Positions 1,998 to 18,132 of a DNA stretch of 64,000 nt are shown here, in pieces. Within the stretch, counting starts at the first letter, position 1; each line of letters starts with the position of its first letter. The DNA comes from an uncultured Pseudomonadota bacterium (GTDB taxonomy: Bacteria; Pseudomonadota; Gammaproteobacteria; Steroidobacterales; Steroidobacteraceae). The position numbers and the translations under genes are program-made. Below the pieces are notes generated by a model that saw only the letters and a list, made by a program, of their open reading frames with translations, searched no databases and was not told where the DNA came from. Where the stretch lies: NCBI GenBank assembly GCA_963752125.1, contig CAVVXG010000035.1, positions 18,139 to 82,138 of the forward strand, read 5' to 3'.

Positions 1998-2064
1998 ATT
2001 CTAGAAATGCGTTTGGCTAGAATTCCAATATCATCGTTGAATAATCACGATGCCGGGCCGGCAT
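1998..2064 (-). promoter_or_regulatory. Conserved operator+promoter module, copy facing the rraA-like/NIPSNAP unit
   Basis: Perfect dyad ATGCCGGGCCGGCAT at 2050-2064. On the minus strand a CTAGAAT box starts 60 nt after the first dyad base (TAGAAT = 2003-1998). Confidence 0.5.
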
Positions 2065-2193
2065 GGTGCGCAACCGGCCTTGGCCATCGGCGGCAAGTCG
2101 CTCAGACGGCCGTAAATGGCAAGCCCGAGTTCTAAACAGAGCCCCTTGCATACAAAGCTGCGATTGCCCGACCCCCGCCAATGCGGTATAGCT

Positions 2194-2260
2194 ATGCCGA
2201 ATCGGCATGGCGTGTATAGAAATTTAGTCTTTGAACTATAGTGTAAAGGCATCGCAAGAT
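2194..2260 (+). promoter_or_regulatory. Conserved operator+promoter module, copy facing the solute-binding-protein unit
   Basis: Perfect dyad ATGCCGAATCGGCAT at 2194-2208. TAGTCTTTGAAC block with TTGAAC at offset 37 (2231-2236). The -10 position is weak (CAAGAT 2255-2260). Confidence 0.45.
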
Positions 2261-2345
2261 CCGGACTCCAGGGCGTGGGCGGTCGATCGACCGAAAGGCA
2301 GGCGCCGATCGACCCTCGAATCAGGCTCTTGAGGGGGATTGATAG

Positions 2346-3395
2346 ATGCCAGATAAGATGAGGCGCGCGGTCGTGATGGCGCTATCCGCCACGACCCTGC
2401 TGCTGGCTGGCGGCGCTTTTGCCGCGGCGCAAGATGATGCTGGACTGTATGCGGTGGCCCAGAAGGAAGCGGGCGTCAACTGGTATACCGGTCTGCTCAA
2501 GACTCAGATCGTCCAGCCCCTGATCACCGGTTTCGAGGCCAAGTACCCCGGGGTGCGAGTCGAGCACACCACCGGTTCCGATGCCGAGTTGCTGGACAAG
2601 ATCGTAGCTGAGGCGCACGCGGGAACCGTGCACGCTGATGTCAGCCTCGGTCCCTCCATGGCCGGGCAGCTGCTCGAGGCGGGCCTGGTCGCGCGATACA
2701 TTCCCGCCAACGCGGCGAATGTGCCGGCGCAATACAAGGACCCCCGGGGTTTGTGGACGGCACCTACGCTGTTCTTCATCGTGCCTGCGATCAATACCAA
2801 CCTGGTAAAGAGTGGTGAGGAGCCGCGCACGCTCGAGGACCTGCTCGATCCCAAATGGCGCGGCAAGATGGTCTGGTCGGGCGAGGTGGGGACCTCTGGC
2901 CAAGTGGGCTTCATCGGCGCGGTTCTCAACTACATGGGCGAGAGCAAGGGTAAAGCCTATCTGCGCAAGCTGGCCGCACAGCAGGTTGTCACGCTTCCCT
3001 CCAGTGCGCGGGCGGTGCTGGATCGGGTGATCGCCGGCGAATATCCCATCGGGCTAGCCACCTACAATCATCATTCCTCCGCCAGCCAGGCTAAAGGCGC
3101 GCCTGTGCGGTGGTTACCTCTGCAGCCGATCGTCTCAGTCATGGCGCGCTCGATGTTGCTGAAGGGTGCCCCGCACCCCAACGCAGCCAAGCTGCTGATC
3201 AACTACCTGCTGTCGCCAGAGGGGCAACAGGTGTTCCGCGATGCCGGTTACATTCCCTCCATCAGCAGCGTTCAGCCCAAGGACCCGTCGTTGAAGATCG
3301 ATCCCGCCCGCTTCAAGATGTTCGCACCGTCGCCGGCCGAAGAGTTGCAGGGCATGAAGGAGTGGCTGGGGTTGTACAAGGAATTGTTCCAATGA
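2346..3395 (+). CDS. Periplasmic solute-binding protein, ABC type (family 1, FbpA/AfuA iron(III)-like); no cognate permease or ATPase nearby
   Basis: 349-aa ORF with a signal peptide (ATTLLLAGGAFAAAQ) and a family-1 SBP-like sequence (WYTGLLKTQIVQPLITGFEAKYPGVRVE...). Confidence 0.75.
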   Translation: MPDKMRRAVVMALSATTLLLAGGAFAAAQDDAGLYAVAQKEAGVNWYTGLLKTQIVQPLITGFEAKYPGVRVEHTTGSDAELLDKIVAEAHAGTVHADVSLGPSMAGQLLEAGLVARYIPANAANVPAQYKDPRGLWTAPTLFFIVPAINTNLVKSGEEPRTLEDLLDPKWRGKMVWSGEVGTSGQVGFIGAVLNYMGESKGKAYLRKLAAQQVVTLPSSARAVLDRVIAGEYPIGLATYNHHSSASQAKGAPVRWLPLQPIVSVMARSMLLKGAPHPNAAKLLINYLLSPEGQQVFRDAGYIPSISSVQPKDPSLKIDPARFKMFAPSPAEELQGMKEWLGLYKELFQ

Positions 3396-3442
3396 ACACG
3401 CGCTACTAAAGCCGCGTCGTCTGAGCCAAGCTCGGGCGGACC

Positions 3443-4420
3443 GTGGGGATTAGACACAGACAGGCAGCGAACGTGAAATCCTATTCACACTTCGATATCA
3501 CCGGTCTCCACTACTTCTCCATCGTGGCGGAAGAGCGGAGCTTTTCACGCGCATCCAACCGGCTGCACATTGCGCAGCCGGCCATCAGCCGCAAGATCAA
3601 GGCGCTCGAGAACGATCTGGGTGTGCGCCTCTTCATCCGCCATGCGAAGGGGGTGGATGTTACGGAGGCAGGCGAAAGCCTGCTGCAGAGCGCCTATTCA
3701 TTATTCCGGCAAATCGAGACCCTGCACGACAGCGCCGTCATCTCCAGCGAGATGCCGCGCGGCACGGTCACGATCGGCGTGTTGCCGACCCCGGGGGAAT
3801 ATATCGTCCCGCGGCTTATCAAACAGTCGCGCAAGCTTTTCCCGGAGCTCAAGTACCGCATCATCGAAGGCTACAGCAGCGACCTGCAGCGAATGTTGAT
3901 CAACCGGGAAATCCATATCGCCATCATGCACGGGCCTTCGCCACACCCGGACATCGTCTCGCAGGAGTTGCTGATCGACCATCTGTGCCTGGTCGGCCCC
4001 GCCGGCTCGCTCGCCAAGACATCCTACACACTGGCGGAAGCCGCAGCGTTTCCTCTGATCCTGCCGGAACCTTCCAACTTGTTGCGCTCGCACATCGACC
4101 GCGCCGCGGATGAGCAGAACCTGAAGCTCAACGTGATCATGAATTGCAGTGGCTTCTGGCTCATCAAATCGCTGGTCGTCAGCGGGATCGGGCACACCGT
4201 CGTCACCCTCGACTCCATTTTCAATGAGCTCGAGCAGGGTAAGGTTTCCGCGGCCTCGATCTCCAACCCCAACATTCCGTGGGCGCTGGCGGTCGCCATG
4301 CATAGCGACCAATGCCACAAGCTTTCGCTCGTGGTCGTCAAGGGATTGATCGAGGCGATCGTGACCGAGCGCTCCAAGCATATCTGGAGCCAGATGCCGA
4401 AGGTCGAGGACGCGGCATGA
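3443..4420 (+). CDS. LysR-family transcriptional regulator
   Basis: N-terminal HTH: LHYFSIVAEERSFSRASNRLHIAQPAISRKIKALENDLGVRLFIRH. The start is uncertain; GTG 3473 gives the usual short N-terminus. Confidence 0.85.
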   Translation: MGIRHRQAANVKSYSHFDITGLHYFSIVAEERSFSRASNRLHIAQPAISRKIKALENDLGVRLFIRHAKGVDVTEAGESLLQSAYSLFRQIETLHDSAVISSEMPRGTVTIGVLPTPGEYIVPRLIKQSRKLFPELKYRIIEGYSSDLQRMLINREIHIAIMHGPSPHPDIVSQELLIDHLCLVGPAGSLAKTSYTLAEAAAFPLILPEPSNLLRSHIDRAADEQNLKLNVIMNCSGFWLIKSLVVSGIGHTVVTLDSIFNELEQGKVSAASISNPNIPWALAVAMHSDQCHKLSLVVVKGLIEAIVTERSKHIWSQMPKVEDAA

Positions 4421-4445
4421 GTATCATTTCAAACGGAAGAGGTAG

Positions 4446-5327
4446 ATGAAGGTAGACGTAGTTTGTCAGGCGTCCAACATCCTCGGTGAGAGCCCGGTTT
4501 GGTGTGAGCGTTCGCAAAGCCTCTATTGGGTCGACAGCCGGGCTGCCGCGCTGCAGGTGTATAGCACCGCAACGGGTGCGAGCCGATCGTTTGCTCTGCC
4601 GGAGACGACCGGCAGCATCTGTCTGTGTGAGGATGGCTCGCTGCTGGCGGCGATGACCACCGGGGTGTTCCGTGTGGACGCCAACGGCAGCGTGGGTCCG
4701 AGGATCGCGGTAGCCAGTCCGAATCACCCCGATAACCGCTTCAACGACGGTCGTTGCGACCGCGCCGGCCGCTTCTTCAGCGGCACCATGAACGACAAGC
4801 AACGCATTCCCACCGGCGCCTTGTGGCGGCTCGGCCCGGAAGGAGACTTCGAGCTGCTGCTCGATGACATCATCGTCCCCAACAGCCTGGCGTTCAGCCC
4901 CGACAACCGCCGCATGTACCTGTCGGACACTTACCGGCACGAGATCTACGTCCTCGATTACGACATCGGCGCGGGCCGCATCAGCAACAAACGCCTGTTT
5001 GCCGACCTGCACGGCAGCCCCGGCCGGCCGGACGGCTCGGCCATCGATGCGGATGGCTGTCTGTGGAACTGCGAGTACGCCGGCGGCAGGGTGGTGCGCT
5101 ACACGCCCGCGGGCAAAGTGGACCGTGTTGTTGAATTGCCCGTTTCCCAGCCGACGTGTTGCGCGTTTGGCGGCCAGGATCTCGAGGATCTTTACATTAC
5201 ATCGGCGCGCCAGAGGCTCACGCCCGAGCAGTTGGCCGAGCAGCCGCTGGCAGGGAATGTGTTTGTGGTGCGCCCCGGCGTCAAAGGATTGCCGGAAGGC
5301 CGCTTCGGCGGCATGAGTGCCCGATAG
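4446..5327 (+). CDS. SMP-30/gluconolactonase/LRE-family lactonase-like protein
   Basis: 293-aa ORF: ILGESPVWCERSQSLYWVD...RFNDGRCDRAGRFFSGTM...PNSLAFSPD...PDGSAIDADGCLWN, typical six-bladed propeller lactonase motifs. Confidence 0.8.
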   Translation: MKVDVVCQASNILGESPVWCERSQSLYWVDSRAAALQVYSTATGASRSFALPETTGSICLCEDGSLLAAMTTGVFRVDANGSVGPRIAVASPNHPDNRFNDGRCDRAGRFFSGTMNDKQRIPTGALWRLGPEGDFELLLDDIIVPNSLAFSPDNRRMYLSDTYRHEIYVLDYDIGAGRISNKRLFADLHGSPGRPDGSAIDADGCLWNCEYAGGRVVRYTPAGKVDRVVELPVSQPTCCAFGGQDLEDLYITSARQRLTPEQLAEQPLAGNVFVVRPGVKGLPEGRFGGMSAR

Positions 5328-5335
5328 GTCCGAAG

Positions 5336-6289
5336 ATGCCGACGCAAAAGGCAGAGGTTCTCATCACCGCGCCGGTTGATCGGCGGTTGGATGACGCGCT
5401 CGCGCAGTCGTTTGTTGTGCATCGGCTATGGCTGGAGCCGGACAAGCAGGCGTTGCTGAGCAGGATTGCGGATCGGGTGCGCGTCATCGTCAGTCGCAGC
5501 GTCTTCGGCGCTGATCGGGCGCTCATGGAGGCACTGCCGAAGCTCGAGCTGCTTGCGGTCTTTGGTGTCGGTCTCGATGCGGTCGATCTGGTGGCGGCAC
5601 GCGAGCGAGGTGTCCGCGTCACCAACACCCCCGACGTGCTTACCGCGGATACGGCCGACTATGGCATAGCCCTGCTGCTTGCGCTGGCGCGTAAGATCGT
5701 GGTCGGGGATCGCTTCGTGCGCGCAGGAAAGTGGCTGCAGGGAATGTTGCCGCACTCCACTCGCGTGAGCGGCAAGCGGCTCGGCATCGTCGGTCTTGGC
5801 AGAATCGGCGCAGCCGTTGCTCGCCGTGCCGAGGCGTTCTCGCTCGAGATCTTCTATACGGGCCCGCGGCAGAAGCGCGACAGGCCGTGGACTTACGTTA
5901 CAAGTCTCGTTACGTTAGCCGAGAAGGTCGAGTTCCTGATCCTGACCTGTCCCGGCGGCCCCGAGACGGCGCGAATCGTGAATGCTGAGGTGTTACGCGC
6001 GCTGGGCCCTGACGGCATGCTCATCAATATCGCACGCTCATCCGTGGTCGATCAGGCTGCATTGATCGCGGCGCTCCAGGGCGGAGTGATCAAGGGCGCC
6101 GCTCTCGATGTGTTCGATGATGAGCCGAGGGTGCCGGCAGCGTTGCTCGCCATGGATAGCGTCATCGTCGAGCCGCACATCGCCAGCACAACGGTCGAAA
6201 CACGCGCGGCGATCTGCGATCTGGTGCTGGCAAACGTCGCGGCCTACTTCGCGGGCGAACCGTTGCCGAGCCCTGTGCCGATGCCCTGA
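5336..6289 (+). CDS. D-isomer-specific 2-hydroxyacid dehydrogenase (glyoxylate/hydroxypyruvate reductase-like)
   Basis: Internal ATG 5336 (MPTQKAEVLITAP...) lies 9 nt after the preceding stop. NAD-binding motif GIVGLGRIGAAVARRA and the C-terminal ...HIASTTVETR motif are present. Confidence 0.8.
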   Translation: MPTQKAEVLITAPVDRRLDDALAQSFVVHRLWLEPDKQALLSRIADRVRVIVSRSVFGADRALMEALPKLELLAVFGVGLDAVDLVAARERGVRVTNTPDVLTADTADYGIALLLALARKIVVGDRFVRAGKWLQGMLPHSTRVSGKRLGIVGLGRIGAAVARRAEAFSLEIFYTGPRQKRDRPWTYVTSLVTLAEKVEFLILTCPGGPETARIVNAEVLRALGPDGMLINIARSSVVDQAALIAALQGGVIKGAALDVFDDEPRVPAALLAMDSVIVEPHIASTTVETRAAICDLVLANVAAYFAGEPLPSPVPMP

Positions 6290-6314
6290 TGGCATGGCTC
6301 GGTTTGGGTGTGCC

Positions 6315-6381
6315 ATGCCGACCCGGTATCGCCACGATTGAAAAATAGTCTTTGAGCTGCAGCGACGGCTTCTCCTATTGT
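6315..6381 (+). promoter_or_regulatory. Conserved operator+promoter module, copy upstream of the TolB/amidohydrolase gene
   Basis: Dyad ATGCCGACCCGGTAT at 6315-6329. TTGAGC at offset 37 (6352-6357). CTATTGT at offset 60 (6375-6381). Confidence 0.5.
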
Positions 6382-6432: not shown

Positions 6433-9400
6433 ATGAACAGTTACCAGCGGATCGTTCAGATAGTTGCAGGATTTGCCGTCGCCGCTTGCGGTCTATGTTC
6501 AGCGGCGCGGGTTCTTGCCAGCCCTCCGATCACCCTGCAGCTCCATGAGGGCACCAGTCTGGCGATCGCGCTGTCTCCCGACCATACCCAGATCGTGTTT
6601 GATCTGGATGGCGTGCTGTTCAAGATGCCCGCCGGCGGCGGGCAGGCGCGACCGATCACCGATGCATTGTTCGACGCGCGCCAGCCGAGCTTCGCGCCCG
6701 ATGGCCGCAACATCGCGTTTCAGTCCAATCGCGATGGCCATTGGAGGATCTGGGTCATCGGCTCGAACGGCGAGCATCCGCATCCCCTGTCAACCGACGG
6801 GTTCGATGAGCGCGAGCCGAGTTGGTCTCCCGATGGCAAGTCGATTGCCTTCACATCGACCCGCACGGGAAAATTCGACATCTGGGCGCGCTCAGTGGCT
6901 GACGGTAGCCTGCGGCAACTGAGTTTCGGGCCCGGCGGCAACAGTCGCCCAAGTTGGTCACCCGATGGATCGCAGGTCGCTTACATTTCCGACCGCCCCA
7001 AGGCCTCGGGCATCTACGTGTCCGACGGCCAAGGCCGCGAGCATGAGGTCGCACCGATCAAGTTGTCCCCGTTCGGGCCGACCATCGCTCCGGCGGGAGT
7101 TCCGACGTGGACGCCGGACGGCAAGGACGTGCTGTTCGTCAAGTTTGAGGATGCGCGCGCGACGTTGATGCGCAACCGAGCGGCGACCGAGCGGCCAGCG
7201 AGGGAACCCCCAGTGGGGGCCAGCGAGGGAATCCCCAGCGGGGACAACACCAACGTCTTTCTCGAGGGCGAGGACTTCCATCCGTTTCGGATACAGTGGC
7301 TCTCTGACCGTGAGTACCTGTACGCCGCCGACGGCAAGATTAAACGCCGCAGCCTCGATGGGGGCGCCGCGCAGGTTGTACCGTTTACGGCACCCATTGT
7401 GGTGCGGCGGCCCGATTATCACAAGAAAGTACAGGACCTGACCTCAGCTGCCGCCAGGCCCGTGCACGGGGTGCAGCGCGCGGTGCTTTCACCGGATGGT
7501 GAGCAGATTGCGTTCACGGCCCTGGGTGCTTTGTGGACGATGAAAATCGGCGGTACTCCCCGTCGCCTCACCGATGACGGCCCCTACGCGGTGATCGATC
7601 CGGCATGGTCGCCCGACGGTCAGCGCATTGCGTTCTCGACGGATCGCGGCGGCAGTCTCGACATCTGGACCATAGAGCCCGCCTCGGGACGCACGACTCG
7701 CATCACTCGGGCGCCGGGTGCCGAGATCCGCCCGGCGTGGTCACCGGATGGCAAGCAGCTCGCCTACATCGAGGCGTTCGGAATCTATCAAGAAAAGACG
7801 CATGTGCTGGACCTGCAGAGCGGCACAGATCGCACGCTGGAGGCCGCCGGATCCAGTCCGGGCTATCCTGTTTGGATGCCCGACGGGCGCTCGCTGTTGG
7901 TATCTACCTACCACGGGCAGTCGGAAACAGAAGGCTACCTGGTCGGTGGCGAGAATCAGGCCACGCTCGTACCGATCGACGGCGGTGCGGCGCGCCCGTT
8001 GGTGTTGCTCAAGGGACGTTCGATCGGCAACCGCTCGGGCGACGGGCCGGTCATTTCGCCCGATGGCAAGACGTTCGTCTATCAATTGGATTCCGCGCTG
8101 TGGCAGCAATCCGCTGTGGAGCAAGCCGGAGCGTTCGACCCGCCGCACAAGCTCGCGGATCTGATCACCACGGGACAAAGCTGGTCCGCCGACTCGCGTT
8201 GGCTGTTGGTGAACGCCGGCAGCAACATGCGGCTGTTTGATATGAAGAGCGGCCGGGCCGCGCTAGGCGGGGCCGCCTCAGGCCGCTCGCGAACGGTGTC
8301 TGTGCCGCTGACGTGGCACGCGAAAATGGACGCGGGAACCACGACTATTCACGCCGGATTGCTTGTGGACGGCGTCTCGAGGACGGCGCGGTCGGATGTC
8401 GATATCGTGGTCGTCGACGGCCGTATTCGTGCGATCGAGCCGCACGGCAAGCAAGCGCCGCAGGGCCGCTATGTCGAGGCGTCGGGCCTCACAGTCATGC
8501 CGGGCTTGATGGACATGCACACGCACCTCATCAAGGAATTCGGGGCGAGCTTCGGGCGTCTCGACCTCGCGTATGGCATTACGACAGTGCGCAGCCCCGG
8601 CAACGTGCCCGGTGATGTCCTCGAGGAGAAGGAGGCGATCGCAGCCGGCCAGCGGCCCGGCCCGCACATGTTCGTCACGGGGTACATTCTCGACGGCGAG
8701 CAGACCATCTGGGAAATGGGCACGGCCGTGAACAGCACTGCCGAGGTTGACCGTCAGATCCAGCTCGCGCACGATCTCGACTACGACCTGATCAAATCGT
8801 ACATCCACACCAGCGAGCCGTTGCGCCAGGAGATCGTTGCGGCGGCCCACCGCGCCGGCATGCCCGTAACCGCTCACGATATCTACCCGGCAGCGCTGTT
8901 CGGCAGCGACAGCTCCGAGCATTTCTTCGTCGCCGGCTCCAGCCGCGGGTATTCCAACAAGGTGAGCAACCTGCAGCTCGTCTACGACGACGTCGTGCAG
9001 ATTCTCAGCAAATCAGGCATGACCAACACGCCGACACTGTCGTTGTTTACGCCCTCGGCGGAGCTGGTGGACAACGATCCCGCCATGGCAAAGGCGCGTT
9101 GGGCGTTGCAGCCGGTTTGGGTGCGCAATGCTCCAAAATTTGGCAGCGGCGATGTTCCCGGCGGGGATGTGATGTTGGCCAATGTGCGTGCCTCGATCGC
9201 GAAGCTGCATGCCGCCGGCGTGCGCTTCGTAGTGGGCACCGACACGCCGTTTAAGGAGACCGGCATCAGCACCCACAATGAAATGGTGCAGATGGTGAAA
9301 GCCGGTATCAGTCCTTATGACGCGTTACGCGCGGCAACGGTGGTTCCGGCGGAGTTGCTTGGCGAAACGCGCGATCTCGGCAGCGTCGAGCCGGGGAAGA

Positions 9401-9549
9401 TCGCGGACCTCGTGTTTGTGGAGGGTAACCCGCTGACCGACATCCGTGATGCTTCCAAGGTTCGCAAGGTGATGAAGATGGGGCAGCTTTACGACATCGC
9501 GGAGTTGACGACCTTCCCTGTCGCCCCCGGGGTAGAGCAGAGCCGCTGA
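6433..9549 (+). CDS. Exported TolB-like PD40 beta-propeller repeats fused to a C-terminal metal-dependent amidohydrolase
   Basis: ATG 6433 (MNSYQRIVQIVAGFAVAACGL... signal peptide). Repeated P-x-W/F-SPDG-x-x-IAF motifs occur in two blocks. The C-terminal amidohydrolase has PGLMDMHTHL and ...VVGTDTP. Confidence 0.8.
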   Translation: MNSYQRIVQIVAGFAVAACGLCSAARVLASPPITLQLHEGTSLAIALSPDHTQIVFDLDGVLFKMPAGGGQARPITDALFDARQPSFAPDGRNIAFQSNRDGHWRIWVIGSNGEHPHPLSTDGFDEREPSWSPDGKSIAFTSTRTGKFDIWARSVADGSLRQLSFGPGGNSRPSWSPDGSQVAYISDRPKASGIYVSDGQGREHEVAPIKLSPFGPTIAPAGVPTWTPDGKDVLFVKFEDARATLMRNRAATERPAREPPVGASEGIPSGDNTNVFLEGEDFHPFRIQWLSDREYLYAADGKIKRRSLDGGAAQVVPFTAPIVVRRPDYHKKVQDLTSAAARPVHGVQRAVLSPDGEQIAFTALGALWTMKIGGTPRRLTDDGPYAVIDPAWSPDGQRIAFSTDRGGSLDIWTIEPASGRTTRITRAPGAEIRPAWSPDGKQLAYIEAFGIYQEKTHVLDLQSGTDRTLEAAGSSPGYPVWMPDGRSLLVSTYHGQSETEGYLVGGENQATLVPIDGGAARPLVLLKGRSIGNRSGDGPVISPDGKTFVYQLDSALWQQSAVEQAGAFDPPHKLADLITTGQSWSADSRWLLVNAGSNMRLFDMKSGRAALGGAASGRSRTVSVPLTWHAKMDAGTTTIHAGLLVDGVSRTARSDVDIVVVDGRIRAIEPHGKQAPQGRYVEASGLTVMPGLMDMHTHLIKEFGASFGRLDLAYGITTVRSPGNVPGDVLEEKEAIAAGQRPGPHMFVTGYILDGEQTIWEMGTAVNSTAEVDRQIQLAHDLDYDLIKSYIHTSEPLRQEIVAAAHRAGMPVTAHDIYPAALFGSDSSEHFFVAGSSRGYSNKVSNLQLVYDDVVQILSKSGMTNTPTLSLFTPSAELVDNDPAMAKARWALQPVWVRNAPKFGSGDVPGGDVMLANVRASIAKLHAAGVRFVVGTDTPFKETGISTHNEMVQMVKAGISPYDALRAATVVPAELLGETRDLGSVEPGKIADLVFVEGNPLTDIRDASKVRKVMKMGQLYDIAELTTFPVAPGVEQSR

Positions 9550-9554
9550 AGATG

Positions 9555-9896
9555 TTATTTCGGCGTGATTCCGGGCAGCTGCGGCGAGAAGGATGTGGCG
9601 CGCAGCAGCCGCGTCTCTTCCACGACGAAAAGGCCGGCGTTCATTGCGACGAACCGCGACCAGGCCGGATCCTGTTCCATACGGGCGCGGCGGGCCTCGC
9701 GGTCCACCACGCTCTCGAATCCCCACAAGTGAATCACCTGATTGAGCATCCCTATCTCGCTTACATAGCAGCCGATGTGATGGCCGAGGTAGCGACGTTG
9801 CAACGCCAGCCCGATAGCGGCGTAGCGCTCGAGATATTCGTCCATGCGCCCATGTGGAATCGTGCAGGTTTGATGGTCGACGATCATGATTCGCAT
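9555..9896 (-). CDS. NIPSNAP family protein (copy 2)
   Basis: 113-aa ORF, MRIMIVDHQTCTIPHGRMDEYLERYAAIGLALQRRYLGHHIGCYVSEIGMLNQVIHLWGF... Roughly three quarters identical by eye to 779-1147. Confidence 0.8.
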   Translation of the reverse strand: MRIMIVDHQTCTIPHGRMDEYLERYAAIGLALQRRYLGHHIGCYVSEIGMLNQVIHLWGFESVVDREARRARMEQDPAWSRFVAMNAGLFVVEETRLLRATSFSPQLPGITPK

Positions 9897-10093: not shown

Positions 10094-10597
10094 ATGCGGA
10101 CTCCTGCGTCACGTCACGCCTTTCGAGCCGCTGGCTGGCTCGCGGTATGTCTGTGTGCCGTCTGGGTGCCGAATTCGTATGCCGAACCGTCCGGCAGCCC
10201 GCCCGCGCACCCCCCGGCCACCGCCGCGGCAGTAGCGCCTGCCTTGCCGATCAAGGAATTCATGGCCCATGTCGTGGCGTACTCGGCCCAGAACCTGTGG
10301 AACAAACAGGGCTGGATCAACGACAAAACCGGTATGCACTCCTTGCTGCCGAAGAATGAGCAGGAATGGGAGGATGCGGAGAGTGCCTCGCTCACCTTGA
10401 GCGAAGTCATCGGCATTCTCCTGCAGCCCGACAGGCGGCTGCCTTTTCCGGGCTGGGATAACAATGCTCGCGCCGTTCGCACGCTGGCGCAGCAAGCTGC
10501 AGCCGCGGCGGAAAAGCACGATGCCGACGCGTTCGTCAGGATCGGCGGCGAGCTCGATGAGGCATGCGAGAAGTGCCACAAGGCGGCCGGCTTGTGA
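10094..10597 (+). CDS. Exported c-type haem protein, cytochrome c'-like (C-terminal CxxCH)
   Basis: ATG 10094 (MRTPASRHAFRAAGWLAVCLCAVWVPNSYA signal peptide). A single haem motif CEKCH lies 6 residues from the C-terminus, as in class II cytochromes c. Confidence 0.55.
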   Translation: MRTPASRHAFRAAGWLAVCLCAVWVPNSYAEPSGSPPAHPPATAAAVAPALPIKEFMAHVVAYSAQNLWNKQGWINDKTGMHSLLPKNEQEWEDAESASLTLSEVIGILLQPDRRLPFPGWDNNARAVRTLAQQAAAAAEKHDADAFVRIGGELDEACEKCHKAAGL

Positions 10598-11094
10598 TGG
10601 CGATGTACGATCATTTCATCGTCTGGCTCGACGGCACCCAGTTGAGCCTGCTCTTCAAGGTGACCAGCTGGTTGGTGCCCCTGATGCAGAGTATCCACAT
10701 ACTCGCCATCGGGGTCGTTGTGTCTGGTGGGGTGATCATTCTGCTGCGTGTGACGGGCGTGAATGCCTGCCACGTCGATATCGCTGCGCTCAACGAGCGG
10801 TTAATACCTCCGATCTGGTGGGCGTTGCTGGTGCTGTTGCTGACCGGGTTGATCCTCATCATCACCGAGCCCGGCCGCGCCATGGTGAACCCGTTCTTCT
10901 TTGCGAAGATGCTGTGTGTGGTCGCATTTGTGGTGCTGACCCGCTGGTTCCAGCTCGCGGTACGCCGGCAGCCGCAGCGCTGGAGCGGTAGTGCGAGCTT
11001 GCCGCCCGCGCGCTTGCCGATCTGCGTGCTCGCATTGCTGCTGCTGCTCGCCATCGTGTTTTGTGGCCGCTGGATCGCTTATTACAATGTTTGA
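10597..11094 (+). CDS. Uncharacterized integral membrane protein (about 4 TM), paralog A
   Basis: ATG 10597 overlaps the preceding stop (TGATG). Hydrophobic segments are present and the protein ends ...FCGRWIAYYNV. Confidence 0.6.
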   Translation: MAMYDHFIVWLDGTQLSLLFKVTSWLVPLMQSIHILAIGVVVSGGVIILLRVTGVNACHVDIAALNERLIPPIWWALLVLLLTGLILIITEPGRAMVNPFFFAKMLCVVAFVVLTRWFQLAVRRQPQRWSGSASLPPARLPICVLALLLLLAIVFCGRWIAYYNV

Positions 11095-11584
11095 CTTTAT
11101 CCAACATCTGGCTCAGCAGCTGGAAGCATCCTCGATGGCCAAAGCCATCGCCGGATCCGGTTACCTGTTCCCCATTTGCGAAGTGATCCATGTCATCGGC
11201 CTGTCGTTGGTGATCGGCTCAATCTCGATCGTCGATCTGCGCCTTCTGGGGCTGGCATCGTTGCGGCGGCCAGTCACGGATCTCACGCGGCAGATGCTGC
11301 CCGTTACCTGGACGGGCTTCTGCATAGCCGCCCTGTCGGGCACGCTGATGTTCAGCTCCAATGCGACCCATTACGTCGGCGTTGGTTACTTTCAGTTGAA
11401 GTTCGTGTTTCTGCTGTTGGCAGCGGCCAACATGTTGATATTCCACGTGTTGACCTGGCGCTCGGTGGCGAGCTGGGACCGGCAGGCGCGGCCGCCGCTC
11501 ATGGCGCGGCTGGCCGGTGCGGTATCCCTGTGTTGCTGGATCGTCGTGGTATTCCTCGGGCGTTGGACCGGTTTTGTCGTTTGA
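11087..11584 (+). CDS. Uncharacterized integral membrane protein (about 4 TM), paralog B
   Basis: ATG 11087 overlaps the previous gene by 8 nt. It has the same layout as 10597-11094: a conserved His in the first TM region (EVIHVIGLS versus QSIHILAIG) and the end ...FLGRWTGFVV. Confidence 0.6.
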   Translation: MFDFIQHLAQQLEASSMAKAIAGSGYLFPICEVIHVIGLSLVIGSISIVDLRLLGLASLRRPVTDLTRQMLPVTWTGFCIAALSGTLMFSSNATHYVGVGYFQLKFVFLLLAAANMLIFHVLTWRSVASWDRQARPPLMARLAGAVSLCCWIVVVFLGRWTGFVV

Positions 11585-11593
11585 GGGCGAGCC

Positions 11594-11660
11594 ATGCCCG
11601 TGCGGTATCGATACCATTGAAAAATGGTCTTTGAGTTGTGAAGAGCATTTCCCCTAGAGT
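11594..11660 (+). promoter_or_regulatory. Conserved operator+promoter module, copy upstream of TonB-dependent receptor 1
   Basis: Dyad ATGCCCGTGCGGTAT at 11594-11608. Second dyad ACCATT-GAAA-AATGGT at 11613-11628. TTGAGT at 11631-11636. CTAGAGT at 11654-11660. Confidence 0.55.
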
Positions 11661-11762
11661 CACGCTGCCAACCCCCACCTAACATTATGTTGTTTTTTTT
11701 TACAACATTGGCGGGGCGAGGCGGACGAGCTAACCAGAGCTTTGGAAATGACAGGGGGCAGA

Positions 11763-14303
11763 ATGTTGAAACGAAATGTGGGCTGCGCCATGCAACGGCG
11801 GCGCGGGATTTCTCGAGTCGAATGGGCCAGTTCCGGGCGGGTGGCGCTCGCGGTGGCCGCATCGATTGCTGCAGCGGGCGCCGTCCGCGCCCAGACCGCG
11901 CCGCCACAAACGGCGGCTGCATCCAGCCAGCTGGACGAAATTGTCGTTACGGCTACGCGGCGCGCGGAGAGCATCCAGGATGTGCCCATCAGTATCACCG
12001 CGTTCAGCCAGGAAAAGATGGACATTCAGGGGATCAAGGCCATAGACGATATCGCCAGGCTTGCCCCGGGCATTCAGTTCACGCGTGGCGGCGGCGGTAG
12101 TGTCGGCTCCGATCTCGCTGGTACTTCCATCTCGATCCGCGGTATCAGCTCTTCGGCCGGCGATTCGACCACCGGCATCTATATCGACGATACACCGATC
12201 CAGGTGGGCGCCACGGTGCCCAGCGGCAACTTCGCCGATGATGCCTTTCCGCAGGTATTCGACCTCCAGCGGGTCGAGGTGCTGCGCGGTCCGCAAGGCA
12301 CTCTGTTCGGCTCAGCTTCCGAAGGTGGCACGGTCCGCTTCATCACGCCGCCGCCGAACATGTCGACGCCTTCGATGTATGTTCGCAGCGAAATGTCTCA
12401 GACGCAGTACGGCGCCCCGAGCTACGAGGCGGGCGTAGCCGGTGGTGCACCGATCATCCAGGACACGCTTGGCTTCCGCGCCAGTGTCTGGACGCGCCGT
12501 GACGGCGGCTACGTCGATGCCGTGGACTACTACACCGGACAGGTCACTTCACCCAACAATAACTGGCAGGAGAGCATGTCGGGGCGGCTTGCCATCGGAT
12601 GGGCGCCGGTTGATGGGTTGATGATCACACCGTCCGTGTTCTACCAGAAGATCAAGGCGAACGGCAGCAGCACATTCTTCCTGCCGGGCGATGGTGTCAC
12701 GGGCTCGTTGAATCCGGGCGACCCCCCGTTGCCCCCCGTCCCGCAGCCCTACGGCAATCCGAGCAGGGGGCAGTACGTCGACTTGGATCAGGTGCCCGCA
12801 TTCAGCAATCAGCGGCTCACCCTACCGGCGTTGAAGATCGATTACCAGTTCGCAAAGATGGAGCTGGTCTCCAATACGTCTTACTATGAGCGCCAGGAAC
12901 AGGCGCAGGCGAACTATACCCTCCTCGAAGGCGGCCTCTTTGGCGGCACTCCGTTCCCTCCCGATCCCGAGTGGAACGCACGCGCCACGTCGAATCAGAC
13001 CAACCGCTTCTTCACCCAGGAAGTGCGCCTGCAATCGAACGATGCGGACTCTGCCCTCAAATGGGTGACGGGCATTTTCTACGCCAATACGACCAACAAA
13101 GCGGACATCACCGTCGCCGATCCACACCTCGGTGAGATCCTCAATGCCGGGGTGAATGGTCCTTGCGGCACTCCCGACCAGTGCGTTCTTGGATTCTCCA
13201 ACGGTGTACCGCTGGTGAACGGCGTCGATACGTTCATCAACAACGCGACGATCAGTCAGACTCAGAAGGCGGCGTTCGCGCAGGTCGACTACCAGCTGCC
13301 GTTTCATCTGATCGCCACGGCTGGGGTGCGCTATACCAAAATGACGACCGGCTTCTTCAACGAGTACGGTGGACCTGGCCAAGGAGCGGTCTGGCCCGCG
13401 TTCAGCACGGCCAACTCGGGAGCTCACGAACTCACGCCGAAGTACATGCTGGCCTGGAAGAATGACGGTGTCATGGTCTACGCCAGCGCGACCAAGGGAT
13501 TCCGTGCCGGTGGCGCCAATCCTGCGCTGACGCAGCCGCAATGCTTCGCGAGCCTGCCGCTGCTGGGCATCAAGTCGGTTCCGACCACGTACAACCCTGA
13601 TACCGTATGGAGTTACGAGCTCGGCTCGAAGTTCACCACGGACCGGGGACGCCTGACGATCGATGCGAGCGTCTTCCAGATCAACTGGAACAATCAGATT
13701 CAGGACGTGGGATTGCCCACCTGTATCCTGTCATACATCACCAACATCGGTACCGCACGCAGCAGGGGCTTCGATCTGGACGTGCAGTACCGTGTGCTCG
13801 ACCCGCTGGTACTGTCTTTGAACAGCGGATACCAGTACGTGGAGGCAACCTCCACGATCAAGTCGACTCCCACCGATCCGACCTCGCTCAACGTCATCAC
13901 AAAGGGCGATGCGTTGCCGGGCTCGCAGCCGGTCGTCAATGCCGCCGCGCAGTACAGCTTCCAGCTGTTCGAGCGGCCATCGTACTTCCGGGTGGACTAT
14001 AATTACACCGGGCGCACGGCCAAGGGTGCCAGCTGGAATCCGCAGGACTCGAGCTACCTCCTCAGTCCGAACACTCAGGCGTTCCTGTATCAAACGCCCT
14101 CGTCGACGCAGACCAACGTACGCCTGGGCGAGCAGTTTGGCAGCTGGGATGTCTCGTTGTTCTGCAATAACCTGCTCAACTACCAGAGATATCTCGGGTG
14201 GAGCAGAAACGGCATCACCTTTAACAACATTCCGTCGGATCTGGTTCAGGCGAGCACCCTGCGGCCGCGCACCGCCGGAGTGACGGCAACAATGCGCTTC
14301 TGA
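11763..14303 (+). CDS. TonB-dependent receptor (copy 1)
   Basis: Plug motif LDEIVVTATRRAESIQDVPISITAF, a long beta-barrel, and a C-terminal ...TAGVTATMRF with terminal aromatic residue. Start taken at ATG 11763 (MLKRNVG...), matching the paralog. Confidence 0.9.
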   Translation: MLKRNVGCAMQRRRGISRVEWASSGRVALAVAASIAAAGAVRAQTAPPQTAAASSQLDEIVVTATRRAESIQDVPISITAFSQEKMDIQGIKAIDDIARLAPGIQFTRGGGGSVGSDLAGTSISIRGISSSAGDSTTGIYIDDTPIQVGATVPSGNFADDAFPQVFDLQRVEVLRGPQGTLFGSASEGGTVRFITPPPNMSTPSMYVRSEMSQTQYGAPSYEAGVAGGAPIIQDTLGFRASVWTRRDGGYVDAVDYYTGQVTSPNNNWQESMSGRLAIGWAPVDGLMITPSVFYQKIKANGSSTFFLPGDGVTGSLNPGDPPLPPVPQPYGNPSRGQYVDLDQVPAFSNQRLTLPALKIDYQFAKMELVSNTSYYERQEQAQANYTLLEGGLFGGTPFPPDPEWNARATSNQTNRFFTQEVRLQSNDADSALKWVTGIFYANTTNKADITVADPHLGEILNAGVNGPCGTPDQCVLGFSNGVPLVNGVDTFINNATISQTQKAAFAQVDYQLPFHLIATAGVRYTKMTTGFFNEYGGPGQGAVWPAFSTANSGAHELTPKYMLAWKNDGVMVYASATKGFRAGGANPALTQPQCFASLPLLGIKSVPTTYNPDTVWSYELGSKFTTDRGRLTIDASVFQINWNNQIQDVGLPTCILSYITNIGTARSRGFDLDVQYRVLDPLVLSLNSGYQYVEATSTIKSTPTDPTSLNVITKGDALPGSQPVVNAAAQYSFQLFERPSYFRVDYNYTGRTAKGASWNPQDSSYLLSPNTQAFLYQTPSSTQTNVRLGEQFGSWDVSLFCNNLLNYQRYLGWSRNGITFNNIPSDLVQASTLRPRTAGVTATMRF

Positions 14304-14334
14304 TGCCAGGAGCCGCTCTCCAAGGAGATGTTCA

Positions 14335-14856
14335 ATGACAATGAAGTACTGGAGTGCCCTTGCAGTGGCGATGGGACTCTCGGTAGCCGGCCAGTCGGTA
14401 GTGGGCGCGCAGGCGCCCGCGACCGACGCGTCGCACGCCAAGGATGCCAAGGCGGCCGCTGAGCCGGCGCCATCGGCGGATGGTCCATGGATTGGAACGT
14501 GGAAGCGCCGGGCTGCTACGGGCAGCGCGACTATGAAAATGTGGGTGGAAGGGGACGGCTTCCGCTACGAGATCGATATGGCCGGGCCATCGGGCCCGGC
14601 GGTTCACATGACTGCGTTCGGGCGGTTCGATGGCAAGCAATATCCCGAGAAGGGCAACGCGGTGGCGGACTTCAATGTGTTCAAGCGCATTGACGCTCAC
14701 ACGTACTCGCTCGACGATATCAAGGATGGCAAGGTCACCCATCACTTTACCGTGACCATTTCGGCTGACGGCAAGACGAGGACCTCTGTGGCCGTGACTC
14801 ACAATGACAAAGGTGAGGAAGTCACTAACACCGGGGTCTGGGATCGGGTTAAATAG
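14335..14856 (+). CDS. Exported hypothetical protein (173 aa)
   Basis: AAGGAG lies 8 nt upstream of the ATG. Signal peptide MTMKYWSALAVAMGLSVAGQSVVGAQA. No recognisable catalytic motif. Confidence 0.6.
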   Translation: MTMKYWSALAVAMGLSVAGQSVVGAQAPATDASHAKDAKAAAEPAPSADGPWIGTWKRRAATGSATMKMWVEGDGFRYEIDMAGPSGPAVHMTAFGRFDGKQYPEKGNAVADFNVFKRIDAHTYSLDDIKDGKVTHHFTVTISADGKTRTSVAVTHNDKGEEVTNTGVWDRVK

Positions 14857-14903
14857 GGGGCAGTGGCTGTTTCGGATGCTCTTGAGATGAGTTGGAGGTT
14901 TTC

Positions 14904-15329
14904 ATGAAGATGCGTCGTTTCGTGACGCTCGTGGCGGCGTTGGTGTGCTTCAGCACAGCCGTGTTCGCGCATCACTCGCAGGCAATGTTCGACATGAACA
15001 AGATGGTGACGCTGAAGGGCGTGATCACCAAGTTCGCCTGGATCAATCCGCATGTGCAGCTCTATTTCGATGTTACGGAGAACGGCAAGACCGAGAGCTG
15101 GCAGATCGAGACCAACTCCGCATTGAGCATGACTCGAGCTGGATGGACGCGGGAAGAGTATAAGCCGGGGGATGCGGTGGAGGTTTCGTTCCATCCCATG
15201 AGGAACGGAACCCACTACGGGTACTTGCGCAAGATTGTGGGACCGAACGGCAAGGTGCACGAGTTGCCTGCGGGAATACCGCAGGCGCCGGGAAGTAGCA
15301 ACGATCAGAACACTCCTGCGGGAAAGTAA
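14904..15329 (+). CDS. Exported small protein with predicted mature N-terminus HHS... (DUF6152-like, family name from memory)
   Basis: GGAGG lies upstream of ATG 14904. The signal peptide ends ...CFSTAVFA followed by HHSQAMFD. Confidence 0.65.
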   Translation: MKMRRFVTLVAALVCFSTAVFAHHSQAMFDMNKMVTLKGVITKFAWINPHVQLYFDVTENGKTESWQIETNSALSMTRAGWTREEYKPGDAVEVSFHPMRNGTHYGYLRKIVGPNGKVHELPAGIPQAPGSSNDQNTPAGK

Positions 15330-15346
15330 AACAGGACAGGTGCGAG

Positions 15347-16000
15347 ATGCTTTTCAGGAAAATCGCTGCTCTTGGTTTCGCACTTGTCCTGGCCGCGGTC
15401 GCCGTCGGAGCACCCCCCGCGCCGACGGCGGCCGGCCGGCCGCCTGATATCTCAGGCGTCTGGGGACCCGCATTCGTCCAGTCCCTCGCCGAGAATCCGC
15501 CCTTTCTTCCGGACGGATTGAAGCGTTTCAACTCGACCAAGCCGGAGGACGACCCGTTGGGCAAGTGCATGCCGCCGGGTATTCCGCGCTTGATGAATCT
15601 CGCATTTCCCTTCGAGGTGATTCAGACCCCGAAAGTCGTGTACTTCCTCATGGAGTACGGGCAGCACGTGCGCCGGATCTATATCAACGGCAAGCATCCC
15701 GACAGCCCTGATCCAACCTGGCATGGCTACTCGACCGGGCACTGGGAGGGACGGACGCTGGTGGTCGATACCATCGGCTTCAACGAGGACACCTGGCTGG
15801 ACATGCGGGGGCATCCGCATAGCGATGCCCTGCACATTATCGAGCGCTACACCTTGTCGCAAGACGGCAAGAGCCTGAAACAGGAAGCGACGATCGACGA
15901 CCCAAAGATGTATTCCAAGCCGTGGCAGACCGCGGCCTCGACGCATCCCAAGATGCCGGATACCACGCATATCGAGGAATACATCTGCGTACCGGGCTAG
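15347..16000 (+). CDS. Exported hypothetical protein (217 aa)
   Basis: Signal peptide MLFRKIAALGFALVLAAVAVGAPPAP. A truncated copy of its first codons is found at 20767-20878. Confidence 0.65.
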   Translation: MLFRKIAALGFALVLAAVAVGAPPAPTAAGRPPDISGVWGPAFVQSLAENPPFLPDGLKRFNSTKPEDDPLGKCMPPGIPRLMNLAFPFEVIQTPKVVYFLMEYGQHVRRIYINGKHPDSPDPTWHGYSTGHWEGRTLVVDTIGFNEDTWLDMRGHPHSDALHIIERYTLSQDGKSLKQEATIDDPKMYSKPWQTAASTHPKMPDTTHIEEYICVPG

Positions 16001-17937
16001 CGCTCGGCGTCGCCGCGCTCTTGGTGGTGAACGCGGTGCCGTCGCTGGCGGCGCCGCAAGCGGGCGGGGCGCCTGTAGTTCAACACTACGACGAGGCCCT
16101 GCTGTCGAAGCCAACCTACAAGGTCAAGGTTGAGATCGACGTCCAGGTGCCGATGCGCGACGGCGTGACCTCTTCGGTCGACATCTATCGGCCGGATGCC
16201 CTGGGTCAATTTCCCACCATCCTCTATCGCACGCCCTACAGCAACAACACCGAGCAGGCCGTCGCCGTCTCGAAGTGGTTTGCCGAGCGCGGCTACGTGT
16301 ATCTGTACCAGGATGTGCGCGGCAAGTACGACTCGAAGGGCGACTTCTATCCATTCCGTCACGAGCCGGACGACGGCTATGACATGGATGAATGGGTCGG
16401 GAAGCAGCCCTGGTTCAACGGCAAGCTCGGCACCATGGGCGGCTCCTACTCCGGCTATACGCAGTGGGGACAGGCGATCCGCGGCAGCCGCTATCTAACC
16501 GCGCAGGCGCCGCAATTCACGACGCCGGATGTGTATGGCAACTGGATTTATATCGACGGAGCGCTGAACTACGCGTTCGCCCTGTCGTGGGGCGCAACCC
16601 AGATCGACGGCCATGTCGGGCAGTCGACCGGGAATGCGATCGACATGGCAGATGTGTATCGGACGCTGCCAATCGCTGCCGCGCCCGCAGCAGCTGGCCA
16701 CCGCGCGCCTCACTACCACGACTGGATCTCACATCCGACGCGGGACGCTTACTGGAATGATTTGAGCTTTGAGAAAGCGTATCAGACGGTCGAAGTGCCC
16801 ATGCTCACGGTGGAGGGCTGGTACGACATTTTTCTGCGCGGGGCGCTGCAGGACGATGTTGGCATGCATGCGGCAGGCAAGCCGGAGGCTCGTGCGGGCA
16901 AGCGTCTGGTTATCGGACCGTGGATTCATGGCGCCAGTAGTCGCACCAACCTGTATCCCGGGCAGCCGGCGGATCCTGATGCTGTTGACTTCGGGCCACA
17001 GGCTGACGTCGACTTGCAAAAGGTGTATCTGCGCTGGTTCGACTATTGGCTGAAAGGGATCGATAACGGGGTAAAAGACGAGCCACCCGTCAAGATCTTC
17101 GTGATGGGCGAGAATGCCTGGCGCTACGAGCACGAATGGCCGCTCAAGCGTGCGCAGGCCACGAACTATTATCTTTCAAGCGGGGGGAGGGCGAATACCC
17201 TCGGTGGCGATGGGCGCCTGTCGAGGCAACCGGAGCGTGACCGAAACGCAGTGGAGGAAATCCCACGAAGCGCCTACGGTGCGACGTGGGGCAGCGGAGG
17301 GAATCCCGAGAAGCGCCAGCGGCGCGACGCGGGACGACCGGCTCGCCTCTCCGCGCCGATCGACACTTACGTTTACGACCCGAAAGATCCAGTGCCCACC
17401 ACGGGCGGTACATCGTGCTGCGCGGCCCTGACCTCTGTTGGACCAAAGGATCAGCGCCCAGTTGAAAAAAGGTCCGACGTGCTCGTGTTTACGACCGACC
17501 CTTTGACGGAAAGGGTCGAAGTAACAGGGCCCGTCACATTGACCCTTTACGCTGCGACCACTGCAAAGGATACGGACTGGACAGCGAAGCTGGTGGACGT
17601 GGGGCCGGATGGCTTCGCGCGCAACGTGCAGGAGGGCATCCTGCGTGCGAGATATCGGGAAACGCGGGGTAAGAGCCCCGGTACGCTATTGCAGCCGGGC
17701 AAAGTGTACGAGTACACGATCGATCTGTGGGCGAGCAGCAATGCCTTCCTGCCCGGCCATCGGATCCGCCTCGAGGTCTCGAGCAGCGACTTTCCGCATT
17801 TCGACCGGAATCTCAACACCGGCGAGGACACTGCGACGGTGAGCCGAATGGAAGTGGCTACCCAATCCGTCTATCACAGCGCGCGCTATCCGTCGCATCT
17901 GCTGCTGCCGATCATTCCTCTTTCCCCGTCGCGATAG
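15922..17937 (+). CDS. CocE/NonD-family serine hydrolase (X-Pro dipeptidyl-peptidase S15-like)
   Basis: RTPYSNN..., nucleophile elbow MGGSYSGYTQW, and a C-terminal beta-sandwich part ...YDPKDPVPTTGG...FPHFDRNLNTG. Start uncertain: ATG 15922 overlaps the previous gene by 79 nt and alternative non-ATG starts are possible. Confidence 0.85.
   Translation: MADRGLDASQDAGYHAYRGIHLRTGLALGVAALLVVNAVPSLAAPQAGGAPVVQHYDEALLSKPTYKVKVEIDVQVPMRDGVTSSVDIYRPDALGQFPTILYRTPYSNNTEQAVAVSKWFAERGYVYLYQDVRGKYDSKGDFYPFRHEPDDGYDMDEWVGKQPWFNGKLGTMGGSYSGYTQWGQAIRGSRYLTAQAPQFTTPDVYGNWIYIDGALNYAFALSWGATQIDGHVGQSTGNAIDMADVYRTLPIAAAPAAAGHRAPHYHDWISHPTRDAYWNDLSFEKAYQTVEVPMLTVEGWYDIFLRGALQDDVGMHAAGKPEARAGKRLVIGPWIHGASSRTNLYPGQPADPDAVDFGPQADVDLQKVYLRWFDYWLKGIDNGVKDEPPVKIFVMGENAWRYEHEWPLKRAQATNYYLSSGGRANTLGGDGRLSRQPERDRNAVEEIPRSAYGATWGSGGNPEKRQRRDAGRPARLSAPIDTYVYDPKDPVPTTGGTSCCAALTSVGPKDQRPVEKRSDVLVFTTDPLTERVEVTGPVTLTLYAATTAKDTDWTAKLVDVGPDGFARNVQEGILRARYRETRGKSPGTLLQPGKVYEYTIDLWASSNAFLPGHRIRLEVSSSDFPHFDRNLNTGEDTATVSRMEVATQSVYHSARYPSHLLLPIIPLSPSR
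17251..17336 (+). repeat. Imperfect 43-bp tandem duplication inside the CocE/NonD gene
   Basis: 17251-17293 versus 17294-17336 match at 33 of 43 positions (hand alignment). The period is not a multiple of 3, so the two copies are read in different frames. Confidence 0.5.
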
Positions 17938-18065
17938 GCGTCGCGACCCCGTCTCCAACATGACAGCGACCATGGCCGCCAGCTTGGGTGCTGGCGGCTA
18001 TCTGCATGTGATTTTCCTCGGGCCCCAGTCAGCTCGCCACATGAAAGCCTCCTGAAAATAGAGCC

Positions 18066-18132
18066 ATGCCGATGCGGTATGGAGACCATTTAAAAATGGT
18101 CTTTGAGTCGCGAGAGACATCTCCCCTAGAGT
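18066..18132 (+). promoter_or_regulatory. Conserved operator+promoter module, copy upstream of TonB-dependent receptor 2
   Basis: Dyad ATGCCGATGCGGTAT at 18066-18080. Second dyad ACCATT-TAAA-AATGGT at 18085-18100. TTGAGT at 18103-18108. CTAGAGT at 18126-18132. Confidence 0.55.

Follow-up and report, generated by a model that had tools for sequence, protein, structure and literature searches.

LysR-type transcriptional regulators (LTTRs) canonically act at promoters with a palindromic T-N11-A primary site near -65 and further contacts reaching to -35; they bind with or without inducer, and their secondary sites are described as non-conserved (PMC4834489). Examples include BenM and CatM at benA and catB, with ATAC-N7-GTAT sites, as well as CbnR and ThnR, the latter at divergent promoters (PMC4834489). 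Here we describe a promoter-like module of about 67 bp that occurs six times in a 64-kb stretch of DNA from an uncultured gammaproteobacterium of the family Steroidobacteraceae (contig CAVVXG010000035.1; the whole stretch is called the window, and positions are counted from its first letter). The modules surround a gene for a LysR-type regulator and stand before genes for uptake and catabolism, in a cluster of 20 kb. From the motif, its geometry, orientation and conservation and its co-occurrence with this regulator, all of which were observed directly, we infer binding, start sites and activation rather than repression: the cluster LysR very probably binds the six modules, each of which would be an LTTR-dependent promoter.

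The dyad of the module, ATGCCG-N3-CGGCAT, is perfect in copies 1, 2 and 4 (numbered as in Table 1) and has the right arm CGGTAT in copies 3, 5 and 6. With at most one mismatch allowed, it gave 11 strand-matches in the window against 1.26 expected, and 0 of 100 shuffled sequences reached 11. A 140-nt alignment round each site showed that similarity reaches well past the dyad, the block AAAATGGTCTTTGAG coming next. In full, the module consists of the dyad ATGCC-N5-GG(C/T)AT, then, 33-41 nt from where the dyad begins, an (A/T)NGTCTTTGA block, and at +60 CTAGA(G/A)T. Counted from the first dyad base, a TTGAGY/TTGAAC hexamer starts after 37 nt and a CTAGAGT, CTAGAAT or CTATTGT box after 60 nt; copy 2 has no -10-like box at +60, where GCAAGAT stands. 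Copies 5 and 6, which precede genes for TonB-dependent receptors (TBDRs), carry a second dyad, ACCATT-N4-AATGGT. A 90-nt profile built from the six copies and run over the window found these six as its sole module matches (E 1e-17 to 7e-22), the next-best match being the same palindrome on the opposite strand.

All six modules are intergenic and aimed at the first gene of a unit, 40-100 nt upstream of the start codon, given realistic start codons. For the PD40-amidohydrolase, cytochrome-like and two TBDR genes, the plausible starts are the downstream ATG codons used in Table 1, chosen for their Shine-Dalgarno-like G-runs and signal-peptide-like N-termini; the longest open reading frames (ORFs) would start at 6352, 9986 and 18137 and overlap the modules, and these starts were rejected as artefacts. 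Automatic gene calls in locus L032 of a relative (12779 and 16444) likewise run into modules, and the N-termini of the PD40-amidohydrolase and cytochrome-like proteins appear over-extended in those calls and in the longest ORFs of the window. An earlier note on this DNA had described the six dyads, their fixed offsets to the hexamer (+37, in the five plus-strand copies) and, in five of the six copies, to the box (+60), the second dyad of the receptor copies and the intergenic, gene-directed placement of every copy. All of this can be read directly from the window, as can the fit to T-N11-A that the note proposed, which ATGC-N7-GCAT satisfies. Its account of the CGGTAT right arms is likewise correct, but it missed a left-arm mismatch (ATGCCC) in copy 5.

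The LysR protein carries the expected domains (PF00126, 7e-22; PF03466, 5e-37), and its orthologues were found at 96, 88-82, 74, 67-64 and 57% identity; their helix-turn-helix region FSRAS-RL-IAQPAISRKIKALE is nearly invariant and is similar in paralogues. The DNA round six of these orthologues (96, 85, 74, 67, 65 and 57% identity; Gamma- and Alphaproteobacteria) was compared with the window. Every orthologue locus, seven distinct lineages out of seven, has the module, in two to five copies with identical internal spacing; LysR is the sole regulator common to all of these loci, and its gene adjoins a module in each of the lineages (57-96% identity). Module targets in these loci are RraA-like/NIPSNAP genes, LysR-lactonase-2-hydroxyacid dehydrogenase, short-chain dehydrogenase/reductase (SDR) genes, genes for ATP-binding cassette (ABC) binding proteins, PD40-amidohydrolase and TonB receptors. 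The 96% locus (L032) repeats the window layout, with five modules in the stretch compared. Three modules each were found in L035 (85%) and L036/37 (74%), with RraA-like and TonB receptor targets in both and a third module before LysR in L035 and before PD40-amidohydrolase in L036. In L038 (Mesorhizobium sp. 8, CP040914, locus around 2.027-2.032 Mb; 67%), L039-41 (65%) and L042 (57%), modules precede RraA-like or SDR, LysR and ABC binding-protein genes. The conserved core has RraA-like and NIPSNAP genes divergent from LysR, lactonase and 2-hydroxyacid dehydrogenase genes, with SDR and ABC transport genes close by. The LysR and RraA-like genes diverge in L035, L036, L039-42, L051, L101 and L161; in the window and L032, the binding-protein gene precedes LysR.

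The window and nine loci, from eight distinct lineages, together gave 25 non-redundant module copies with the consensus gcCATGCCg...cGGcAT.g.....AT..AAa.ATgGTCTTtGAa.t.t.g(9 nt)ctccTAga.t. Spacing is fixed in all of them, the information content is highest in the dyad, in the GTCTTTGA block and in cTAGA/TAG, and T2 and A14 of the dyad are invariant (25/25). In L039, L040 and L041 (13699-13713 in each), one perfect palindrome, ATGCCGGCATGGCAT, is flanked on both sides by outward-facing halves with block, -35 and -10, and serves divergent SDR and ABC binding-protein genes.

Selection was separated from copying by restricting comparison to the 30 least-informative columns of the module, at which chance identity is about 25-30%. 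Orthologous copies in different genomes are 53-66% identical at these columns. When paired with the other window copies, copies 1, 2 and 4 reach 20-43% identity, for the most part close to chance, and the positions that they share are therefore kept by selection for function rather than by recent copying. The paralogous receptor copies 5 and 6 are 66% identical, and copy 3 is 40-50% identical to these two and 56% identical to the receptor copy of L035. These values hint that the receptor and hydrolase copies may have arisen by cassette copying. A wider version, in which the whole unit of about 67 bp is a portable cassette that was copied before recruited genes, so that the regulon may have grown in this way in this gammaproteobacterial lineage, is doubtful though conceivable; in its favor, identity at unconstrained columns is 40-66% among copies 3, 5 and 6 together with the receptor copies from L035 and L028, against 20-43% for pairs that include copy 1, 2 or 4. 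If it were true, a rigid, fully specified secondary site might mark an LTTR subfamily whose promoter can be moved as one piece, and a dyad common to a paralogous LTTR would permit cross-talk between two catabolic systems.

Scans with the motif alone led back to the same genes. A strict exact-pattern scan of 185,579 representative genomes (596 Gb), a set that evidently lacks the source genome, resulted in 31 single matches scattered through unrelated phyla, roughly as many as chance would give. Only one of the loci was real: L028, from a metagenome-assembled genome of Povalibacter sp., in which two divergent modules lie between two TonB receptors. A looser pattern, able to recover 17 of the 25 known copies, returned at least 120 loci from metagenomes; among the matches listed, the profile picks out about 11 loci as true and leaves the others as chance matches, most of the true loci adjoining the same gene families and the rest other transporter genes. 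A LysR orthologue is visible in L051, L070, L101 and L161, where RraA-like, lactonase or SDR genes are present too. In L051, receptor, NIPSNAP and RraA-like genes are divergent from LysR and lactonase; L070, L071 and L077 belong to one 86-kb contig with the window layout, and L101 and L161 have a Mesorhizobium-like layout. L129 holds a receptor, an S15 hydrolase and PTE, then NIPSNAP, a cytochrome-like gene, two DUF6644 genes and PD40-amidohydrolase, and L119 also holds PTE. The module of L046 precedes a major facilitator superfamily (MFS)-like permease, and those of L110 (~1222-1299) and L112 (~1268-1329) precede binding proteins of tripartite ATP-independent periplasmic (TRAP) transporters, L110 having a LysR homologue as well. 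Counted over all loci with redundant copies included, 51 of 55 module matches have a same-family gene downstream on the right strand, with homology beginning 5-296 nt after the -10-like box; two more have the MFS-like permease (L046) and a TRAP binding protein (L112) downstream. No downstream gene was found for the last two (L077 114 and L129 311), both of which lie at ends of available sequence.

A related site accompanies a paralogous LysR, P0022 (49% identity), whose context consists of a TRAP transporter, GST, CMD, Amidohydro_2 and SDR. Directly between this LysR and the TRAP binding-protein gene stands GCTATGCCGTTTCGGCATGGGAAGCATAAGTCTATTATATTTGAATTATA, in the same register as the module, and the block is kept with the dyad at constant distance even in this site. 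Operators of the paralogue type occur in L163/L164 (8937-8993), and those of L110 and L112 are of the same type. Because the 49% paralogue has the same dyad beside unrelated genes, the operator appears to belong to an LTTR subfamily and to follow the regulator. The choice of the cluster LysR as candidate regulator, made in the earlier note, thus draws support from its domains, the co-occurrence of its orthologues with modules, the motif scan and the dyad of the paralogue, and the profile and pattern scans that the note had suggested placed true copies, among the matches listed, only near the same families or other transporter genes.

Taking CTAGAGT as the -10 box, the centre of the palindrome would lie about 65 nt upstream of the transcription start; in the sequence itself, the first base of TAGAGT comes 53 nt after it. 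The 15-bp palindrome ATGCC-N5-GG(C/T)AT would be the primary, high-affinity site for one dimer pair of a LysR tetramer. The conserved AT..AAa.ATgGTCTTtGAa stretch, about 20-30 bp past the dyad centre (dyad positions 23-41), overlaps the -35 hexamer and would be contacted by the second dimer pair, as an activation site, and by RNA polymerase. On the same assumption about the -10 box, the GTCTTTGA block would fall at about -40 to -32 and, in the receptor copies, the second dyad near -45. The -35/-10 pair has 8 of 12 consensus bases and an 18-nt spacer, and a sigma-70 consensus scan called 0 of the 6 module promoters, all being below threshold, which suits weak promoters rather than an absence of promoters. 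Since the pair is weak, transcription should depend on the inducer-bound regulator: the tetramer would sit on dyad and block, and inducer binding would let RNA polymerase use the weak promoter. One regulator could in this way turn on together a conserved core (RraA-like and NIPSNAP; binding protein, LysR, lactonase and 2-hydroxyacid dehydrogenase) and lineage-specific additions (PD40-amidohydrolase, the cytochrome-like/DUF6644 genes, and two TBDR units with the CocE/NonD hydrolase). As the LysR gene lies behind a full module, positive feedback is predicted, and the arrangement suggests that autoregulation is positive rather than negative.

Several points weigh against this model. The -65 position rests on a predicted -10 box, and copy 2, which drives LysR itself, is the one that lacks such a box. 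Conservation near -35 equals that of the primary dyad, which is not expected of a canonical, non-conserved secondary site, and a second factor or unusual polymerase contacts may act there. No LysR gene is visible in the 8-11 kb examined of the Povalibacter-like loci L028 and L129, and cross-regulation by a paralogous LTTR that shares the dyad is conceivable. Classical LTTRs keep their own, divergently placed gene repressed; in the window, the LysR gene stands behind a module of the target type.

Some of these points could be turned into a different account, in which another transcription factor, a paralogous LTTR or a member of another family, binds the dyad and the cluster LysR regulates other genes or part of the set. 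The paralogue makes clear that the dyad is not unique to one protein, and the Povalibacter-like stretches fit such an account. It is nevertheless improbable, as the LysR orthologue is the only regulator that all orthologue loci share, always next to a module, with a helix-turn-helix that hardly varies. We also give a low likelihood to the same LysR acting mainly as a repressor released by inducer, or to the -35 block being a second regulator's site under combinatorial control. The unusual conservation of the block for an LTTR secondary site and the additional ACCATT-N4-AATGGT dyad of the two receptor copies would agree with this, but the promoter is weak, the dyad lies 30 bp upstream of -35, the position of an activator and not of a roadblock, and block and dyad are conserved together at one distance, the paralogue site included. 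A search for a second T-N11-A dyad within the -35 block gave no consistent palindrome; all that it turned up was ATAG-N8-CTAT, in some copies, and the ACCATT-N4-AATGGT of the receptor copies. Sigma-54 promoters have a conserved GG at -24 and GC at -12 (TGGCAC-N5-TTGC); a sigma-54 reading of TGGTCT-N5-TTG was rejected, since just 2 of the 6 window copies have GG in the TGG of ATGGTC and conservation is lacking where TTGC should stand, and the six-copy alignment ruled out sigma-54 and extracytoplasmic function (ECF) readings of the TGGTCTTTGAG block.

Hardly tenable is a repeated palindromic element, akin to repetitive extragenic palindromic (REP) sequences or miniature inverted-repeat transposable elements (MITEs), or a promoter copied along with duplicated genes, without a common regulatory role. 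The module is palindromic and intergenic, and the similarity of copies 5 and 6, before paralogous receptors, and of copy 3 to both extends to unconstrained columns; against this, copies 1, 2 and 4 keep the key positions on a near-chance background, all six copies aim at gene starts, and the module is conserved across bacterial classes before orthologous genes. Hundreds of sites, which the earlier note had named as the mark of a generic REP element, contrast with what was found: six copies in 64 kb and, with the strict pattern, a single true locus in 596 Gb of representative genomes, the other matches being at chance level. A transcribed dyad that forms an RNA hairpin (a leader, an attenuator or part of a riboswitch) is equally hard to credit. 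A 6-bp stem is possible, and the CGGTAT variants keep G-U pairing on the plus strand, but covariation was no stronger than in shuffled data (between 122 and 255 of 500 shuffles did as well), substitutions disrupt pairs instead of compensating, no Rfam match at the modules was found at E<=1, no T-run follows the stem, and in L039-41 the same dyad serves both strands.

Table 1. Modules and genes of the proposed regulon in the window, with the module copies that correspond to them in related loci
Feature	Position	Strand	Composition	Module target	Corresponding copies
Copy 1	1998..2064	-	dyad 2050-2064, GATATTGGA block, CTAGAAT 2004-1998	RraA-like/NIPSNAP	before RraA-like in L032, L035, L036, L039-41, L042, L051, L101
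Copy 2	2194..2260	+	dyad 2194-2208, TAGTCTTTGAAC block, GCAAGAT at +60	binding protein-LysR-lactonase-dehydrogenase	L032/L033, L035, L070
Copy 3	6315..6381	+	dyad 6315-6329, block, CTATTGT 6375-6381	PD40/amidohydrolase	L032 12805, L036 6417, L077 3719
Copy 4	9986..10052	+	dyad 9986-10000, block, CTAGAGT 10046-10052	cytochrome c-prime-like and two DUF6644 genes	L032 16414
Copy 5	11594..11660	+	dyad 11594-11608 (ATGCCC), second dyad 11613-11628, CTAGAGT 11654-11660	TBDR1 operon	L071 959
Copy 6	18066..18132	+	dyad 18066-18080, second dyad 18085-18100, CTAGAGT 18126-18132	TBDR2	L032 18016
Unit 1	779..1912	-	RraA-like aldolase family 1190-1912, NIPSNAP 779-1147 (Pfam)
Unit 2	2346..6289	+	Fe3+/aminoethylphosphonate-type ABC binding protein 2346-3395; LysR 3443-4420; SMP-30/gluconolactonase-like 4446-5327; D-2-hydroxyacid dehydrogenase, probable ATG 5336, to 6289
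LysR-type transcriptional regulator	3443..4420	+	HTH_1 and LysR_substrate; proposed dyad binder
Unit 3	6433..9549	+	PD40 beta-propeller/amidohydrolase fusion with signal peptide
Second NIPSNAP gene	9555..9896	-	divergent from copy 4
Unit 4	10094..11584	+	secreted 167-aa protein 10094-10597; two DUF6644 membrane proteins ~10597-11094, 11087-11584
Unit 5	11763..17937	+	TBDR1 11763-14303; unknown 14335-14856; DUF6152 14892-15329; unknown 15347-16000; CocE/NonD S15 hydrolase to 17937
Unit 6	18227..20734	+	TBDR2

Pfam confirms the gene assignments of the earlier note, apart from the 167-aa protein of unit 4, called cytochrome c-prime-like, which has no Pfam match. It has a single CEKCH motif 7 residues from the C-terminus, which we take to be the position typical of cytochrome c-prime, and its gene is always ahead of two DUF6644 genes (window, L032, L071 and L129). 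The RraA-like and NIPSNAP proteins are fused into one protein of 362-364 aa in L039-L041 (8526-9614) and are encoded by neighboring genes in the other loci, which supports their being functional partners. Whether the second NIPSNAP gene belongs to the regulon is uncertain, because the profile of the window and a reading of the region gave no module for it; in L129, a module is followed first by a NIPSNAP gene. In the 5' leader of each receptor unit (11687-11708 and 18156-18167) there is a small hairpin, some 30 nt past the predicted -10 box (ATGTTGT-U8-ACAACAT and GTTG-TTTA-CAAC, respectively). In L032, after the module at 18016(+), and in L071, after that at 959(-), the stem is GTTGC-N5-GCAAC, a U-A pair having changed to C-G. 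A conserved GACAGGGGGCAGAATGTTGAA, comprising ribosome site and start, comes after the hairpin, which may be a leader element distinct from the operator.

The other 46 kb of the window hold housekeeping genes (pyruvate dehydrogenase E2/E3, MetRS, PurM, NadC and PilT-like ATPases) without a module, and base composition is uniform throughout (0.60-0.64 GC). Just beyond the regulon are a tRNA gene (21508-21580, minus strand), a Fur-family regulator (21705-22136, minus), an AMP-binding/PP-binding protein (22350-24308, minus) and a cytochrome P450 (24308-25639, minus), none with a module. Farther along, an 809-aa protein with HEAT repeats and a C-terminal eukaryotic-type Ser/Thr kinase domain (54132-56561, minus) is encoded next to two PilT/T2SSE-type ATPases (51715-53914).

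No NCBIfam equivalog scored above cut-off for the LysR, RraA-like, lactonase, binding or dehydrogenase proteins, LysR being below the cut-off of every named equivalog; the only pass was the subfamily model CocE/NonD, for the S15 hydrolase. Relatives in the PDB are generic (regucalcin-type lactonases, Fe3+-type binding proteins and an uncharacterised RraA-like protein), and searching the literature for the gene combination and for DUF6152/DUF6644 brought up nothing relevant. Judged by the gene families alone, the set suggests outer-membrane uptake, periplasmic hydrolysis, conversion of a lactone or hydroxy acid to a 2-oxo acid, and aldolase cleavage, and the inducer is probably a lactone or a hydroxy- or oxo-acid intermediate of this pathway. 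The regulon differs by lineage, with ABC uptake in Mesorhizobium-like genomes versus TonB-dependent receptors and periplasmic hydrolases in the window. It is a clear but ordinary kind of bacterial regulon and brings no new regulatory principle. Its value lies in a precise, testable candidate operator, ATGCC-N5-GGCAT and GTCTTTGA at fixed distance, for an uncharacterised LysR subfamily of soil Gamma- and Alphaproteobacteria, and in a defined target set that links RraA-like, NIPSNAP, SMP-30-type lactonase, D-2-hydroxyacid dehydrogenase and SDR proteins with ABC or TonB-dependent uptake. This target set makes pathway and inducer approachable through ligand screening of the regulator and reporter fusions.

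Compared with described systems, the module resembles REP elements and bacterial interspersed mosaic elements (BIMEs) in that its dyad is a short GC-rich palindrome repeated in intergenic DNA; it differs in being oriented, upstream of genes, equipped with fixed -35/-10-like boxes, present in few copies, and conserved across classes together with a regulator. Nac belongs to the same protein family as the window LysR and is among its best NCBIfam matches (130.7 bits), and the name is applied by JGI to two orthologues of the window LysR. Equivalence to Nac was rejected, as the score falls well short of the Nac cut-off (309 bits); the surrounding genes are catabolic instead of serving nitrogen assimilation, and the consensus of the Nac site, ATA-N9-TAT, is unlike the window dyad. 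There is a close likeness to the LTTR promoters described at the outset: the dyad ATGC-N7-GCAT (or GTAT) fits T-N11-A and would be centred some 65 nt ahead of the predicted start, a putative second contact region lies over the -35 of a predicted weak sigma-70 promoter, the targets are catabolic and uptake genes, and regulator and targets are divergent in most relatives of the window locus. It departs from them in its half-site sequence, in a -35 region as conserved as the primary site, in a regulator gene that, in the window, is part of a target operon and has a full module ahead of it, in the gathering of six promoters in one cluster with TonB-dependent receptors included, and, in the lineage of L039-41, in a single dyad that serves two divergent promoters.

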